64,000 nucleotides of DNA from Escherichia coli (lineage in GTDB: Bacteria > Pseudomonadota > Gammaproteobacteria > Enterobacterales > Enterobacteriaceae). The first letter of the stretch is position 1; each line of letters begins with the position of its first letter. Positions 4,012 through 9,369 of this stretch are shown here, piece by piece. The notes under the pieces are model-generated. The model did no database searches and was not told the origin of the DNA. It saw nothing but the letters and a program-made list of their open reading frames with translations. Where the stretch lies: the NCBI RefSeq assembly GCF_044324785.1, contig NZ_CP172127.1; one strand, written 5' to 3'. Position numbers and translations under genes: made by a program.

Positions 4012-4382
4012 CTATACTTCCTCCGTGTTTTCGATGAGATGTAAGGTAACCAATTTTTGCCGATTCGGCTAATGCGTTTCCATTATCAAATCGATAAGTT
4101 TTACCTTACAACCTTCGTAAGACAACTTTGTGAACTTTGCACCGCCAGCGGCGATAAAAAGTAAAATGGCCCCCTTTCCAGGTGACCGTGTAATCTGAAC
4201 TACCCTTTGGTATCTTCAGCGCCTGCCTGCAGGCTGAGGTGTTGCCCTTACAAAGGCAACAACGACATGGATTACAACACCCTCATAAACAAAGGGCAAT
4301 CACCTGATCTAAGCTCTTACCTATGACAGTGATAGGTTATGCCTTTTACCCGACTTTTGCACTGACTGAAAAGGACAAATTA
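4012..4382. promoter_or_regulatory. Divergent ahpC / dsbG promoter region (OxyR-controlled ahpCF promoter in E. coli)
   Basis: Intergenic region between divergent starts; OxyR control is established knowledge for ahpC; the exact site was not mapped here. Confidence 0.5.
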
Positions 4383-5129
4383 ATGTTAAAAAAGATACTT
4401 TTACTGGCTCTGCTTCCTGCAATCGCCTTCGCAGAGGAACTTCCTGCTCCAGTAAAAGCGATTGAAAAACAGGGCATTACAATCATCAAAACGTTCGATG
4501 CCCCCGGAGGAATGAAAGGTTATCTCGGAAAGTATCAGGATATGGGCGTCACCATCTACCTGACTCCAGATGGTAAGCACGCTATCTCTGGTTACATGTA
4601 CAACGAGAAAGGTGAAAACCTGAGTAACACACTTATCGAAAAAGAAATTTACGCACCAGCCGGACGCGAAATGTGGCAACGGATGGAACAATCCCACTGG
4701 CTCCTCGACGGTAAAAAAGATGCGCCGGTCATTGTCTACGTTTTCGCCGATCCGTTCTGCCCATATTGTAAACAGTTCTGGCAGCAGGCGCGCCCGTGGG
4801 TAGATTCTGGCAAAGTGCAATTAAGAACATTGTTGGTTGGCGTTATCAAGCCAGAAAGCCCGGCGACAGCAGCGGCAATTCTTGCCTCCAAAGATCCCGC
4901 AAAAACCTGGCAAGAATATGAAGCCTCTGGTGGCAAGCTTAAGCTAAACGTGCCTGCAAACGTAAGTACAGAGCAAATGAAAGTGTTAAGCGACAACGAA
5001 AAACTCATGGACGATCTGGGGGCAAATGTCACACCAGCTATCTATTACATGAGTAAGGAAAATACACTGCAACAGGCCGTGGGGTTGCCCGATCAGAAAA
5101 CGCTTAATATCATTATGGGGAATAAATAA
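4383..5129 (+). CDS. dsbG: Periplasmic disulfide isomerase/thiol-disulfide oxidase DsbG, 248 aa precursor
   Basis: ORF-track frame 4323..5129; start at [17 protein letters not shown] (signal peptide); CPYC thioredoxin-fold motif present. Confidence 0.93.
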
Positions 5130-5141
5130 AAGATAATTCAT

Positions 5142-5178
5142 GGATGGTTGAAATATATCCCTATTTTTCAACCATCCT
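5142..5178. other. Long imperfect hairpin downstream of dsbG (ggatggttgaa...ttcaaccatcc)
   Basis: 11-bp inverted repeat with a 14-nt loop; no clear U-tract, so terminator function is uncertain. Confidence 0.35.
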
Positions 5179-5336
5179 AAAAAAGCATGAATTGCTCGCT
5201 CTGCCCTAAGTGGCTGTGCTATTTTAGAAAAACTTAATTCTGAATTAAGCAAAAAAACATAATACAAATAAATACAACAGCAACATTATTGATCAAGTGA
5301 ATGATTTATAGAAGAGATAATATAACGGAGTATGTT

Positions 5337-6239
5337 ATGGCGAATCTTTATGACCTAAAAAAATTTGATCTGAATTTACTGGTCATATTTGAGTGTATTT
5401 ATCAACATCTCAGCATTAGTAAAGCGGCAGAATCATTATATATAACGCCCTCTGCTGTTAGTCAGTCGTTACAACGTTTACGTGCGCAATTTAATGACCC
5501 GTTATTCATTCGCTCAGGGAAAGGTATCGCGCCGACTACGACAGGGTTAAATCTGCATCATCATCTTGAGAAAAATCTCAGAGGCATTGAACAAACGATC
5601 AATATTGTTAATAAGTCTGAGCTAAAGAAAAATTTTATTATCTACGGTCCTCAGCTTATTTCTTGTACTAATAACAACATGCTAATCCGCTGTCTTAGAC
5701 AAGATACTTCAATCGATATAGAATGCCATGACATACTGCTTTCAGCTGAAAATGCCGAAGAACTGTTGGTTCAACGCAAAACTGACCTGGCAATTACACT
5801 ACAACCAGTAATTAGCCGCTCTGTCATCTGCATGCCGTTACATACTATTCGCAATTCTCTTATATGTAGCAACAAACATCCTCGTATTACCGATACCAGT
5901 AACTATGAACAAATTATCGCCGAAGAATTCACCTTGTTGATATCTAAATCAGCAGGGATTGACGAAATTCAAATGGACATAGATGAACGTTTTATGAACC
6001 GTAAAGTTTCATTTCGCAGTTCTTCTTTGTTGACGATAATTAATAGTATTTCTGTTACTGACTTATTGGGCATTGTGCCCACCGAACTGTACGATTTACA
6101 TCGTGATTTTTTGAAGTTACAAGAGATAAAACTGGAACGACCACTTCCTGCGGTTAAACTTTATATTTCCTATAACAAGGCTTCGTTGAACAACCTTGTC
6201 TTCTCACGATTCATAGATCGTTTAAATGATAGCTTCTGA
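5337..6239 (+). CDS. ybdO: LysR-family transcriptional regulator YbdO (CitR), 300 aa
   Basis: ORF-track frame 5301..6239; start at MANLYDLKKFDLNLLVIFECIY...; N-terminal helix-turn-helix; gene is visibly AT-rich. Confidence 0.88.
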   Translation: MANLYDLKKFDLNLLVIFECIYQHLSISKAAESLYITPSAVSQSLQRLRAQFNDPLFIRSGKGIAPTTTGLNLHHHLEKNLRGIEQTINIVNKSELKKNFIIYGPQLISCTNNNMLIRCLRQDTSIDIECHDILLSAENAEELLVQRKTDLAITLQPVISRSVICMPLHTIRNSLICSNKHPRITDTSNYEQIIAEEFTLLISKSAGIDEIQMDIDERFMNRKVSFRSSSLLTIINSISVTDLLGIVPTELYDLHRDFLKLQEIKLERPLPAVKLYISYNKASLNNLVFSRFIDRLNDSF

Positions 6240-6385
6240 TTTATTACCACGGATAAATGTTATATTACGCATCAATTGATTCATTGTGTGAATATAAAAT
6301 AATGTGCTCTATCTTGCTTCGTTTACCCTATAATTAGCGGATTCATCTCACGAGTCGCCCCGTAACGTTCAGAGAGCGTTTTCAG

Positions 6386-7606
6386 ATGTCTATTTATAAA
6401 ATCCCGCTTCCACTGAATATTCTGGAAGCTGCAAAAGAACGTATTACCTGGACACTTAACACCCTACCCCGCGTCTGCGTTTCTTTTTCGGGTGGTAAAG
6501 ATTCCGGATTAATGCTGCATCTGACCGCCGAACTTGCCCGACAAATGGGCAAAAAAATTTGTGTTTTATTTATCGACTGGGAAGCTCAGTTCTCTTGCAC
6601 CATTAACTATGTTCAGTCCCTGCGCGAGTTGTACACCGATGTCATCGAAGAGTTTTACTGGGTTGCGCTCCCGCTTACAACGCAAAATTCCCTATCACAA
6701 TACCAACCCGAATGGCAGTGCTGGGAACCTGATGTCGAATGGGTACGTCAGCCCCCGCAAGATGCGATAACCGATCCTGACTTTTTCTCCTTTTACCAGC
6801 CTGGCATGACCTTCGAACAATTTGTGCGTGAGTTTGCCGAATGGTTTTCGCAAAAACGTCCGGCGGCGATGATGATCGGCATCCGTGCGGATGAGTCCTA
6901 CAACCGTTTTGTCGCCATCGCCAGTTTAAATAAACAACGTTTTGCCGATGATAAGCCCTGGACTACTGCCGCACCAGGCGGTCATAGCTGGTACATTTAC
7001 CCCATCTACGACTGGAAAGTCGCTGATATCTGGACCTGGTATGCTAACAATCAACAGCTCTGTAACCCACTGTATAATATAATGTATCAGGCAGGCGTCC
7101 CTCTGCGCCATATGCGAATTTGCGAACCTTTTGGCCCGGAGCAACGACAAGGATTATGGCTCTATCACGTTATCGAACCGGATCGCTGGGCTGCTATGTG
7201 CGCACGAGTCAGCGGGGTAAAAAGTGGCGGCATTTACGCCGGACATGACAACCATTTTTATGGTCATCGGAAAATCCTCAAGCCCGAACATTTAGACTGG
7301 CAGGAGTATGCATTATTGCTACTCAACAGCATGCCGGAGAAAACAGCTGAGCATTATCGCAATAAAATCGCCATTTATTTGCACTGGTATCAGAAAAAAG
7401 GCATCGAGGTTCCACAAACCCAGCAAGGGGACATTGGCGCGAAAGATATCCCCTCCTGGCGGCGAATATGCAAAGTTTTACTCAATAACGATTACTGGTG
7501 TCGGGCATTATCATTTAGCCCGACCAAAGCGAAGAACTATCAGCGTTATAACGAACGAATAAAAGGAAAACGTCAGGAATGGGGGATACTATGCAACAAC
7601 GATTAA
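6386..7606 (+). CDS. ybdN: PAPS-reductase-like / PP-loop ATP pyrophosphatase family protein YbdN (IbrA-like), 406 aa
   Basis: Full ORF; PP-loop motif SFSGGKDS near the N-terminus; recognised as K-12 YbdN. Confidence 0.9.
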   Translation: MSIYKIPLPLNILEAAKERITWTLNTLPRVCVSFSGGKDSGLMLHLTAELARQMGKKICVLFIDWEAQFSCTINYVQSLRELYTDVIEEFYWVALPLTTQNSLSQYQPEWQCWEPDVEWVRQPPQDAITDPDFFSFYQPGMTFEQFVREFAEWFSQKRPAAMMIGIRADESYNRFVAIASLNKQRFADDKPWTTAAPGGHSWYIYPIYDWKVADIWTWYANNQQLCNPLYNIMYQAGVPLRHMRICEPFGPEQRQGLWLYHVIEPDRWAAMCARVSGVKSGGIYAGHDNHFYGHRKILKPEHLDWQEYALLLLNSMPEKTAEHYRNKIAIYLHWYQKKGIEVPQTQQGDIGAKDIPSWRRICKVLLNNDYWCRALSFSPTKAKNYQRYNERIKGKRQEWGILCNND

Positions 7607-8208
7607 CGCAGGATTTAACCCAATTTCTCGCCAGCTTGCCGGAAGACGATCGCATCAAAGCGATTAATGAAATCCGCATGGCGATCCATAAGGTCAGTCC
7701 TTTTCGTGAAGAGCCGGTGGATTGTGTTTTGTGGGTGAAAAATAGCCAGCTCGTGCCGAATGATTACAATCCCAATAATGTGGCACCACCAGAGAAGAAA
7801 CTGCTGCAAAAATCCATTGAAATAGATGGCTTTACGCAACCCATTGTGGTCACGCATACAGATAAAAATGCCCTGGAAATTGTTGATGGTTTTCACCGCC
7901 ATGAAATAGGTAAAGGCTTATCATCGTTAAAATTACGCTTAAAAGGTTATTTGCCAGTAACCTGTCTGGAAGGTACACGTAATCAACGCATCGCCGCGAC
8001 TATTCGTCATAACCGCGCCCGTGGTCGCCATCAAATCACTGCCATGTCCGAAATTGTTCGTGAACTCAGCCAGTTGGGATGGGACGATCATAAAATCGGC
8101 AAAGAGCTGGGAATGGACAGCGACGAGGTGCTGCGCTTGAAACAAATTAACGGCCTGCAAGAACTGTTTGCCGACCGTCAATATTCCCGCGCCTGGACGG
8201 TTAAATAA
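7579..8208 (+). CDS. ybdM: ParB/sulfiredoxin-like domain protein YbdM (IbrB-like), 209 aa
   Basis: ORF overlaps the ybdN 3' end by 28 nt; DGFHR motif typical of ParB N-terminal-like domains. Confidence 0.88.
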   Translation: MGDTMQQRLTQDLTQFLASLPEDDRIKAINEIRMAIHKVSPFREEPVDCVLWVKNSQLVPNDYNPNNVAPPEKKLLQKSIEIDGFTQPIVVTHTDKNALEIVDGFHRHEIGKGLSSLKLRLKGYLPVTCLEGTRNQRIAATIRHNRARGRHQITAMSEIVRELSQLGWDDHKIGKELGMDSDEVLRLKQINGLQELFADRQYSRAWTVK

Positions 8209-9369
8209 CTACAGCTGGCGCAGGCGTTCAGCGGCAGCCAGCAACGTCGATTCCTTCTTGGCAAAACAGAGACGAATCAGTTTATGGGGGAAGGGATCGG
8301 CGCAAAACACCGACAGCGGGATCGCCGCTACGCCGTGCTCCCGCGTCAGCCACTGGCAAAACTCAACATCATCCAGCGTAGACACGGCGCTGTAATCCAC
8401 CAGCAAAAAGTATGTACCTTCGCACGGTAAAATCTCCAGCCGGCTTTCATTTAAAGCATTCACCAGAATATCGCGCTTCTGGCGATAAAAGTCCGGTAAC
8501 GCAAGATAATGCTCAGGTTCTGCACGTAGCATATCGGCAAGTGCCAGCTGTGCCGGGGTATTCACCGAAAAGGTCAGATACTGATGTACCTTGCGAATTT
8601 CGGCACTGATGGGCGCTGGCGCAACGCAATAACCCACTTTCCAGCCGGTCATATGATAGGTCTTGCCAAATGAAGAAACTGCCACCGCCCGCTCACGCAG
8701 CTGCGGATGCGCCAGCACGCTGGCATGGCCCTGTTGTGAAAAGTTGATGTGCTCGTAGACTTCATCGCTAATGACAAAAATCTCGTGCCCGCCGATCGCC
8801 TGCCACAGAGCGGAGAAATCAGCCTGCTGCCAGACAGTTGCACTGGGGTTATGCGGGGTGTTGAGGATCACCAGTCGGGTGCGCTCGCTTAACAATGCGG
8901 CAAATTCCTGCCAGTCCACGCGAAAATGCGGTGGTTGCAGTGCCATACGTTTCACTATTCCCCCCGAAAGCGCGATGGCGGGCGCGTAACTGTCATAGCT
9001 GGGATCAAAGCAGATCACTTCATCACCATTGCGCACCAATGCGGTAATCGCTGCATATAACGCTTCCGTCGCCCCTGCCGTTACGGTGATATCGCTATCG
9101 GCATCCGGTTGATAGCCATACAGACGTTCCGTTTTCTGAGCAATCGCCTCGCGCAAGGCCTGCACGCCAGTCATAGGCGCGTATTGGTTTGCCCCTTGGT
9201 CAACATGGTACGCCAGCCGCTCCTGCAAATAGCGCGGACCATCAAAATCAGGAAAGCCTTGCGACAGGTTAATCGCCTGGTGTTGCTGCGCCAGCGCGCT
9301 CATCTGGGTGAAAATAGTGGTGCCAAGTTGTGGAAGTTTGCTTTGTGGAATCAGAGGGTTATTTGTCAT
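8209..9369 (-). CDS. ybdL: PLP-dependent methionine aminotransferase YbdL, 386 aa
   Basis: ORF-track frame 8209..9405; start at MTNNPLIPQSKLPQLGTTIF...; aminotransferase class I fold with SFGKT lysine motif. Confidence 0.92.
   Translation of the reverse strand: MTNNPLIPQSKLPQLGTTIFTQMSALAQQHQAINLSQGFPDFDGPRYLQERLAYHVDQGANQYAPMTGVQALREAIAQKTERLYGYQPDADSDITVTAGATEALYAAITALVRNGDEVICFDPSYDSYAPAIALSGGIVKRMALQPPHFRVDWQEFAALLSERTRLVILNTPHNPSATVWQQADFSALWQAIGGHEIFVISDEVYEHINFSQQGHASVLAHPQLRERAVAVSSFGKTYHMTGWKVGYCVAPAPISAEIRKVHQYLTFSVNTPAQLALADMLRAEPEHYLALPDFYRQKRDILVNALNESRLEILPCEGTYFLLVDYSAVSTLDDVEFCQWLTREHGVAAIPLSVFCADPFPHKLIRLCFAKKESTLLAAAERLRQL

Follow-up and report, generated by a model that had tools for sequence, protein, structure and literature searches.

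A candidate nucleic-acid modification module in Escherichia coli: the normally silent ybdN-ybdM pair and its mobile IbrA/IbrB-family relatives

The stretch of DNA analyzed here (the window) comprises 64,000 nucleotides (nt) of one strand of the Escherichia coli contig NZ_CP172127.1 (RefSeq assembly GCF_044324785.1), and we focus on three adjacent genes in it, ybdO (renamed citR), ybdN and ybdM. We tentatively interpret the ybdN-ybdM pair (ybdNM) as a DNA-targeted, adenosine triphosphate (ATP)-dependent, non-sulfur nucleic-acid modification module that is silenced by CitR and H-NS, and we hold this reading with somewhat less than even confidence. In this reading, a mobile cassette of the IbrA/IbrB family would have a chromosomal copy, ybdNM, that is normally silent and whose two proteins would act as one unit on nucleic acid. 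The locus itself is already known and annotated (in RefSeq as citR, ybdN, “phosphoadenosine phosphosulfate reductase,” and ybdM, “IbrB-like domain-containing protein”) and its regulation is already in print. Nonetheless, ybdN and ybdM belong to the set of conserved K-12 genes to which no biochemical function has yet been assigned and, as a first-pass annotation of this DNA had stated, the literature searched reports no biochemical activity for YbdN, YbdM, IbrA, IbrB or DUF3440.

YbdN joins a PP-loop domain of the PAPS_reduct family to a C-terminal, all-helical DUF3440 domain (Table 1). In an alignment with 74 relatives (25-84% identity), residues G37, K38 and S40 of the PP-loop are invariant and S35, G36 and D39 are conserved in at least 90%. 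Three further sets of residues are invariant or nearly so in the same alignment, namely D64 with E66, the motif GIRxDESxxR (G165, R167, E170, S171 and R174) and the motif PIYDW...D (P206, D209, W210 and D214). No conserved cysteine was found among 79 aligned family representatives, the best column reaching 52%. The AlphaFold model of YbdN (predicted local distance difference test score, pLDDT, 92.9; predicted template-modeling score, pTM, 0.90) shows a helical DUF3440 part and an N-terminal domain whose structure matches are, with their scores, the phosphoadenosine phosphosulfate (PAPS) domain of FAD synthase (15.4), adenosine phosphosulfate (APS) reductase (15.3), CysD (14.2), yeast Fad1 (13.3), TilS (11.7) and TtuA (11.1). 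A profile of the YbdN family likewise matched CysD (2.7e-10), FAD synthase (1.7e-9) and CysH (2.4e-6), and searches of solved structures with the single protein sequences gave marginal matches only. The DUF3440 half had no solved counterpart, with Foldseek TM-scores (query length) of at most 0.35. From the motifs and the model, we conclude that YbdN is predicted to be an intact ATP-cleaving PP-loop enzyme of the clade of CysD, flavin mononucleotide (FMN) adenylyltransferase (FMNAT) and CysH, and we exclude both a PAPS reductase and an iron-sulfur sulfurtransferase of the DndC type. If YbdN behaves like its nearest relatives, it would most likely transfer adenosine monophosphate (AMP) to a substrate oxygen.

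Searched alone, YbdM matches Pfam ParB_N weakly (3e-4), and a profile of its family matches Noc and ParB structures (9e-6 to 4e-5). On these matches, YbdM is a ParB/sulfiredoxin (Srx) domain followed by a helix-turn-helix (HTH) of the KorB/ParB type, and the enteric proteins have an additional two-helix N-terminal extension (residues 1-39). The DGFHR motif aligns with the “AGERR” of Noc (box GERR) and an NPN motif aligns with QPR, so that the canonical residues for binding cytidine triphosphate (CTP) appear to be altered in YbdM. Conservation across 63 homologs from several phyla is high for the family, with 46% mean column identity. Residues N61, N64-P65-N66, D103-G104, R107, R143-H-N-R-A-R-G149 and H151 are invariant, H106 is conserved in at least 90%, and the HTH segment GMDxDExLRLKQIxGL is nearly invariant. 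This alignment contains no conserved catalytic cysteine, and no C-terminal dimerization domain was identified in the model of the 209-amino-acid (aa) protein. Related ParB N-domains also occur in fusions with DNA methyltransferases (phrog_498, 2.4e-10; PADLOC type II methyltransferase model, 4e-4), which indicates that this domain repeatedly partners DNA-modifying enzymes. The pattern of conservation in YbdM resembles that of an enzyme, or of an obligate subunit of a complex, and not that of a regulator with lineage-specific operators.

Much of what the first-pass annotation had proposed for the three genes is borne out. The ORF (open reading frame) listing confirms the three frames and the 28-nt overlap of ybdN and ybdM, which suggests translational coupling. 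SFSGGKDS and DGFHR, singled out as a PP-loop and a ParB/sulfiredoxin-like motif, are real motifs with Pfam or profile matches and key residues that are invariant among the homologs; the corresponding assignments to the PP-loop/PAPS-reductase superfamily and to the ParB/sulfiredoxin-like fold hold in Pfam and in the family profiles. YbdO had been called a LysR regulator and passes the NCBIfam equivalog model for CitR (NF047710; 452.1 bits over residues 1-294, cut-off 400). The suggested resemblance to IbrA/IbrB agrees with the RefSeq name of YbdM and with IbrA-type proteins that are about 58% identical to YbdN.

To describe the distribution of the pair we used a scan of one genome per species (ORF calling and hidden Markov model, HMM, searches), which covered 79 loci. 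All 11 enteric orthologous loci with both genes have the order ybdO-ybdN-ybdM, an identical 28-nt overlap and ybdL as the next gene. In Citrobacter and Pseudocitrobacter, dsbG also precedes ybdO (dsbG-ybdO-ybdN-ybdM-ybdL), and the ybdO-ybdN-ybdM-ybdL core is found as well in Enterobacter, Kluyvera and Superficieibacter. Within E. coli, the locus was detected by megablast in 5422 of 5426 complete genomes. Because the locus is syntenic across genera, any acquisition must be older than the radiation of the Enterobacteriaceae. In this family, ybdNM is thus an old syntenic core locus and not a recent islet, and the earlier description of a horizontally acquired islet misleads on timing. The AT-richness that had been noted at the same time is real for ybdO and its flanks (G+C of 0.34-0.38 across positions 5000-6500) but uneven, since G+C is 0.474 in ybdN and 0.465 in ybdM, against 0.52 for the whole window.

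Outside the enteric orthologs, a ybdN-like gene (N) is followed on the same strand by an adjacent or overlapping ybdM-like gene (M) in about 50 of 64 loci, and in five more an antisense ORF probably masked M. These N-M loci occur in Bacteroidota, Firmicutes, Alphaproteobacteria, Verrucomicrobia, Lentisphaeria and others, with N/M overlaps of -16/-19 or -4 in distant cassettes. Across the 79 loci, a LysR gene accompanies the cassette only in the enterobacterial orthologs. IbrAB-type loci (54-62% identity) in Hafnia, Cedecea, Erwinia, Edwardsiella and Citrobacter lie amid unrelated neighbors, which indicates that the N-M pair is self-contained. A natural YbdN::YbdM fusion was sought as proof of interaction, and none was present among the longer family representatives, whose extensions are other sequences; in one of them (P0123) the added part belongs to a family of small proteins encoded, in other loci, just upstream of N.

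Pairs of the IbrA type (about 58% identical) were found on 855 plasmids in a plasmid collection. On Klebsiella virulence plasmids the pair sits between fecIA and iroBCDN, and on an E. coli IncF plasmid it adjoins a YadA-like adhesin and an S6 autotransporter. An extra IbrAB-type copy is present in 2147 of the 5426 E. coli genomes (about 40%), in up to four places per genome. Such copies lie in an island beside a TonB-dependent receptor in ST131, beside a PerC-family regulator and the aerobactin genes (iucABCD) in O55:H7, and, in a lambdoid prophage, within the nin region between the replication genes and RusA/Q. Sandt, Hopper and Hill (2002) are said to have found that the overlapping ibrA and ibrB genes jointly activate otherwise silent prophage eib genes.

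Phages carry the cassette too. Using tblastn, we found YbdN relatives in 224 phage records, including phages of Flavobacterium, Mycobacterium, Streptococcus, Arthrobacter and Bacillus, and among PHROGs YbdN matches phrog_2302 (7.9e-77) and YbdM the “ParB-like” family phrog_2159 (4.3e-68). A gene for an SNF2-like helicase of about 410 aa stands immediately ahead of the pair in both Streptococcus phage CHPC1148 and Flavobacterium phage 2A; the two helicases share 34% identity (8e-55) and match part of phrog_62. An SNF2-like helicase gene immediately precedes N in 14 loci from genomes and in 13 viral ones, making up a three-gene module. Arthrobacter phage Kovu has, just before its terminase, genes for a ParB-like protein, a PAPS-reductase-like protein, a second ParB-like protein and an annotated acetyltransferase.

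We further examined 80 viral contigs from IMG/VR whose YbdN relatives are 31-58% identical, and M was detected in 71 of them. Their architectures are N-M, M-X1-N, an M::X1 fusion followed by N (22 contigs) and helicase-N-M (13 contigs with the helicase). X1 is a protein of about 135 aa with a conserved NRIAWLGQA motif. Its coding sequence immediately precedes N in 49 of the 80 contigs, and in the 22 fusions it is attached to the C-terminus of the ParB-like protein; the E. coli cassette has no X1. Pfam and PHROG searches gave no match for X1 and nothing significant for the other small proteins upstream of N, the best being a marginal GNAT-like similarity (E 0.096) of a different protein of about 135 aa that precedes N in Bacteroides and some viral contigs. 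Other viral neighbors encode superfamily 2 (SF2) and DnaB helicases and a replication O-like protein. The phage context is one of DNA metabolism, not of sulfur metabolism.

Published work documents the silencing that the first-pass annotation had supposed. YbdO, renamed CitR, binds upstream of citR-ybdNM and represses ybdNM, and its deletion raises ybdN by 5.5 log2 and ybdM by 2.5 log2 (PMC9068703). In the same deletion, the cysteine/sulfate-assimilation regulon (cysDNC, cysJI and cysUWA) is up by 2-2.8 log2, lrhA is down by 4.3 log2 and flagellar genes are up (PMC9068703). H-NS binds and represses the ybdO promoter (PMC4720273), and in E. coli K1 acid pH lifts this repression (PMC9141747). 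YbdM protein is up 29-fold in cells with a CTX-M-15 plasmid and its over-expression costs 10% of growth rate, in a study whose authors term YbdM “completely uncharacterized” (PMC8764527). In the presumed control region between ybdO and ybdN, we propose an inverted repeat of the T-N11-A type as a candidate LysR/CitR box, and a TATAAT hexamer is a candidate -10 element of a ybdN promoter from which a good -35 element is absent (Table 1). A promoter scan returned no more sites than it did in shuffled sequence.

Across positions 5130-6450 (ybdO and both flanking spacers), E. coli carries two deeply divergent haplotypes. Over the segment 5200-6400, 1759 of the 5426 genomes show at least 95% identity to the window, 3557 (the K-12 type) show 60-80%, and only 40 lie in between. 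Relative to K-12, dsbG has 98.4% DNA identity and a synonymous divergence (dS) of 0.07, whereas ybdO has 79.6% DNA and 88.4% protein identity (dS about 2.2, non-synonymous divergence, dN, 0.067, dN/dS 0.03) and is identical over residues 1-83, which include the HTH. The corresponding values are 94.6% DNA identity and a dS of 0.27 for ybdN, and 91.9% and 0.43 for ybdM. Between genera, YbdO proteins share 49-60% identity as against 73-85% for YbdN and, by this measure, ybdO is fast-evolving in every genus. Recent import of a foreign ybdO allele was rejected because the two E. coli alleles are mutually closest (88% protein identity, compared with 49-60% to other genera). The haplotypes fit in-situ diversification of H-NS-bound DNA, for which the ybdO promoter and coding region have served as a worked example (SE11 and K-12 versus SE15; PMC4720273); our data agree with and extend that study (Higashi et al.) and do not contradict it. 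Within E. coli, dN/dS is about 0.03 for both ybdN and ybdM. To judge from this ratio, the two genes are under strong purifying selection, which implies that the pair is used under some condition.

Taken together, the intact PP-loop of YbdN, the ParB/Srx and HTH regions of YbdM, and the linkage, helicase and phage-replication context suggest a two-subunit, ATP-using machine that acts on DNA or on nucleotides due to enter DNA, and the lack of both conserved cysteines and desulfurase partners argues against sulfur insertion. In the mechanism that we infer, YbdM would bind DNA, with its ParB/Srx nucleotide-binding domain and its HTH, and would position or regulate YbdN in a complex. YbdN would split ATP into AMP and pyrophosphate and pass the adenylyl group to a substrate oxygen. 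The acceptor might be a carbonyl group on a DNA base or a DNA phosphate, or possibly a nucleotide on its way into DNA. A covalent modification would result, made without the iron-sulfur/persulfide chemistry of Dnd. In phages and plasmids, such a mark could protect or re-program the element's own DNA; in E. coli, the visible effect would be an altered expression of silenced acquired genes, comparable to that of IbrAB on the eib prophage genes. The Enterobacteriaceae copy is kept under a double lock, in which CitR represses ybdNM while H-NS represses citR and covers the AT-rich region.

Several points weigh against this interpretation. The literature searched contains no report of a modification, of DNA binding, of ATPase activity or of a YbdN-YbdM complex. 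The sole recorded phenotype of the family is transcriptional activation, for which a pure DNA-binding mechanism could suffice. No partner nuclease accompanies the cassette, which is therefore not of the restriction-modification type, and an orphan chromosomal mark is hard to rationalize. Phage versions usually add a third protein (X1, the SNF2-like helicase or the GNAT-like protein) that the E. coli pair is without, and the enteric pair might be incomplete or re-purposed.

The strongest alternative to a modification module involves no DNA chemistry, and we consider it unlikely. Here, YbdM and IbrB would be transcriptional anti-silencers that, as ParB-type nucleotide-switch proteins like VirB or KorB, load onto DNA, spread and displace H-NS from AT-rich foreign genes, with YbdN and IbrA as accessory ATPases that load or recycle them. 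One argument for this is the only phenotype published for the family, in which ibrA and ibrB reportedly join to switch on the silent eib genes; in addition, IbrAB-type copies adjoin genes for adhesins, autotransporters, siderophores and a PerC-family regulator, and the ybdNM module itself lies in H-NS territory. However, both ParB CTP boxes are replaced in YbdM (QPR by NPN, GERR by DGFHR) and its model lacks an identifiable C-terminal dimerization domain. Its HTH is nearly invariant across phyla, unlike those of regulators with lineage-specific targets, and YbdN retains the full set of ATP-pyrophosphatase catalytic motifs, which a mere loader would not need. Moreover, the cassette is frequent, beside helicases, in phages of Firmicutes, Bacteroidota and Actinobacteria, some of them described as virulent. 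To our knowledge, hosts in these three groups are without H-NS.

A second alternative, which we regard as rather improbable, places the pair in a nucleotide or small-molecule pathway. YbdN would adenylylate a free nucleotide or metabolite that YbdM phosphorylates or hydrolyzes, in parallel with the succession of CysD and CysC, the conversion of FMN to FAD and the free serine kinases, and the product would be a non-canonical (deoxy)nucleoside triphosphate ((d)NTP), a signaling nucleotide or an activated metabolite. Those solved enzymes that YbdN most resembles do act on small molecules, namely sulfate (CysD), FMN (FAD synthase) and APS/PAPS, and the cys genes rise when ybdNM is de-repressed by citR deletion (PMC9068703). 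This latter change is, however, indirect, known from a single condition and seen alongside the large effect on lrhA and flagellar genes. A conserved HTH of the DNA-binding type in YbdM and the recurrent SNF2-like helicase partner both indicate DNA instead.

Phosphorothioation of the Dnd, Ssp or BrxP kind, or some other insertion of sulfur, appears very unlikely. The first-pass annotation had compared the pair with the Dnd machinery, and this kinship fails on closer comparison. DGFHR resembles the DGQHR motif of DndB, a likeness at the level of the motif only. YbdN has weak, partial matches to the PADLOC DndC model (1.5e-5), to TIGR03183 (4.6e-5) and to BrxP (1.2e-4), but against the DndC model TIGR03183 it scores 22.5 bits, over residues 145-223 only, where the cut-off is 290.4. 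Models of DndB and of DGQHR proteins in NCBIfam and PADLOC gave no match to YbdM (E up to 0.1), and its sole NCBIfam match is the Noc model at 21 bits. In DndC, three cysteines bind a 4Fe-4S cluster and a cysteine dyad is specific to the protein (PMC10853773); neither the triad nor the dyad is present in YbdN, in which no cysteine is conserved above the 52% given earlier. The induction of the cys regulon on de-repression of ybdNM (PMC9068703) would suit a sulfur chemistry. Yet dndA/D/E, SspA, SspB/SspC and cysteine desulfurase genes are not recurrent neighbors in the 79 genomic and 80 viral loci, and the neighbors in the window are dsbG and ybdL. On HMM scores, the lack of conserved cysteines and the lack of partner genes, we rejected membership in Dnd, Ssp or BrxP systems.

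It is just as improbable that the pair serves in anti-phage defense or abortive infection, with the ParB/Srx protein as an effector that depletes NTPs or nicks DNA. Roles as effectors that degrade nucleotides or nick DNA in conflict systems have been suggested for ParB/Srx proteins (PMC10853773, PMC12839542), and the tight repression of the pair together with the growth cost of YbdM over-expression (PMC8764527) would suit a toxic effector. Against this, PADLOC-DB v2 gave no match to a defense system, only marginal partial ones to DndC, BrxP and the ParB domain of a type II methyltransferase. The locus is also a conserved core locus amid housekeeping genes and not part of a defense island, and phages themselves carry the cassette in their replication modules. 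Finally, an ordinary PAPS reductase of sulfate assimilation (a CysH paralog), as implied by the RefSeq product name of YbdN and by the match of its fold to CysH, is close to negligible and was rejected, given 32.9-33.1 bits against NCBIfam CysH/PAPS-reductase models with cut-offs of 154-254, no conserved cysteine to act as the catalytic residue, an intact ATP-type PP-loop (true PAPS reductases bind PAPS, not ATP, and have a degenerate PP-loop), the additional DUF3440 and an obligatory ParB-like partner.

The analysis thus strips two misleading labels, “PAPS reductase” and “Dnd-like,” from the pair. It also brings together under one self-contained cassette genes of enterobacterial chromosomes, virulence plasmids, pathogenicity islands and many phages, and identifies two recurrent phage partners, the SNF2-like helicase and the roughly 135-aa X1. 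If the pair does modify DNA, this would amount to a new epigenetic or anti-restriction chemistry and would explain how IbrAB wakes silent prophage genes. A bolder claim, and one that we hold to be doubtful, is that YbdN/YbdM and their phage versions constitute an unrecognized, widespread ATP-dependent modification system, chemically distinct from methylation, phosphorothioation and 7-deazaguanine insertion, that marks phage and plasmid DNA and whose silenced core copy in E. coli and its relatives can switch on silenced foreign genes.

Table 1. Features of the ybdO-ybdN-ybdM locus (positions in the window) and of the SNF2-like helicase genes at two other loci.
Feature	Position	Strand	Description
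dsbG-ybdO intergenic region	5130-5336	+	Holds the ybdO promoter/regulatory region; G+C about 0.35; 84% identical to K-12
ybdO/citR	5337-6239	+	LysR-type regulator; 300 aa, start MANLYDL; from the ORF listing
ybdO-ybdN intergenic region	6240-6385	+	Presumed ybdNM control region; 69% identical to K-12, with conserved islands
Inverted repeat ATTCA-N5-TGAAT (T-N11-A type)	6279-6293	not assigned	Candidate LysR/CitR box; kept as ATTC-N7-GAAT in the diverged K-12 allele
TATAAT hexamer	6329-6334	+	Candidate -10 element; conserved between both haplotypes
ybdN	6386-7606	+	406 aa; predicted PP-loop ATP pyrophosphatase: PAPS-reductase-like domain and DUF3440, IbrA family
PAPS_reduct (PP-loop) domain	6473-7087	+	YbdN 30-234; Pfam PF01507, 2.8e-13
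PP-loop SFSGGKDS	6482-6505	+	YbdN residues 33-40
DUF3440, all-helical C-terminal domain	7094-7534	+	YbdN 237-383; Pfam PF11922, 5e-23 and 2e-6
ybdN/ybdM overlap	7579-7606	+	28 nt
ybdM	7579-8208	+	209 aa; ParB/sulfiredoxin-fold domain and HTH, IbrB family
DGFHR motif	7885-7899	+	YbdM residues 103-107; takes the place of ParB box II (GERR)
RHNRARG motif	8005-8025	+	YbdM 143-149; family signature
HTH-like C-terminal region of YbdM	8035-8166	+	Residues ~153-196
SNF2-like helicase	L006:5758-6996, L007:4203-5426		

In the window, the locus is flanked by dsbG upstream (ending at 5129) and by the convergent ybdL downstream, as given by the ORF listing. The stop codons of ybdM (+ strand) and ybdL (- strand) abut at 8208/8209 with zero spacer, and this convergent pair has been catalogued as a transcriptional-overlap “excludon” (PMC12288877). 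Terminator-like hairpins lie on the - strand within ybdL at 8311-8331. The ybdL frame is intact in the window (398 aa from an upstream GTG); in the genome closest to the window, that of E. coli strain N3, the annotation gives ybdL as frameshifted. Just past the dsbG stop codon, at 5142-5177, a 16-nt inverted repeat (94% complementary, 4-nt loop) that is kept in K-12 is probably the dsbG terminator hairpin. An Rfam search placed the enterobacterial small RNA STnc70 on the - strand at 4156-4249, between ahpC and dsbG (44.1 bits, gathering score 40), and gave no match inside the ybdO-ybdN-ybdM locus.

Among known systems, the ParB/Srx-fold kinases (sulfiredoxin, the free serine kinase SerK and SbnI) share the fold of YbdM and are without a conserved PP-loop partner. 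KorB, VirB, Noc and ParB have, like YbdM, a ParB/Srx N-domain followed by an HTH. Unlike ParB, however, YbdM has NPN in place of QPR and DGFHR in place of GERR, no identified dimerization domain and no ParA gene or parS context, so that it has the fold and HTH of a partition ParB and none of these other hallmarks; its invariant RHNRARGxH, in turn, was not seen in ParB and Noc alignments. Nearer to the proposed function are the ParB-N::DNA-methyltransferase fusions of phages and plasmids, in which, as in the YbdM/YbdN pair, a ParB domain is coupled to a DNA-modifying enzyme.

For YbdN, CysD and the PAPS domain of FMN adenylyltransferase/FAD synthase are the closest solved relatives, with an intact ATP-type PP-loop in common. 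These enzymes move AMP from ATP onto an oxyanion, with sulfate or FMN as substrate, and differ from YbdN in having neither DUF3440 nor a ParB-like partner and in sharing only 17-21% identity with it. At the level of the pair, Dnd (DndB/DndC), SspD and the BREX type-4 protein BrxP likewise combine a PP-loop enzyme with a ParB-superfamily protein that has a DGxHR-type motif, and the Dnd and ybdNM pairs are both thought to act on DNA; YbdN, in contrast to DndC, has no iron-sulfur cysteines or cysteine dyad, and its DUF3440 is not matched to DndC.

The closest counterpart is the immunoglobulin-binding regulator pair IbrA/IbrB of E. coli ECOR-9, which has the same two-gene order with overlapping frames and shares with ybdNM both the PAPS_reduct and DUF3440 combination and the IbrB-like ParB domain. 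The two differ in their place in the genome: IbrAB-type copies are accessory and are carried, without citR, in islands, lambdoid prophages and virulence plasmids, whereas ybdNM is a fixed, syntenic core-genome paralog with its own LysR repressor.

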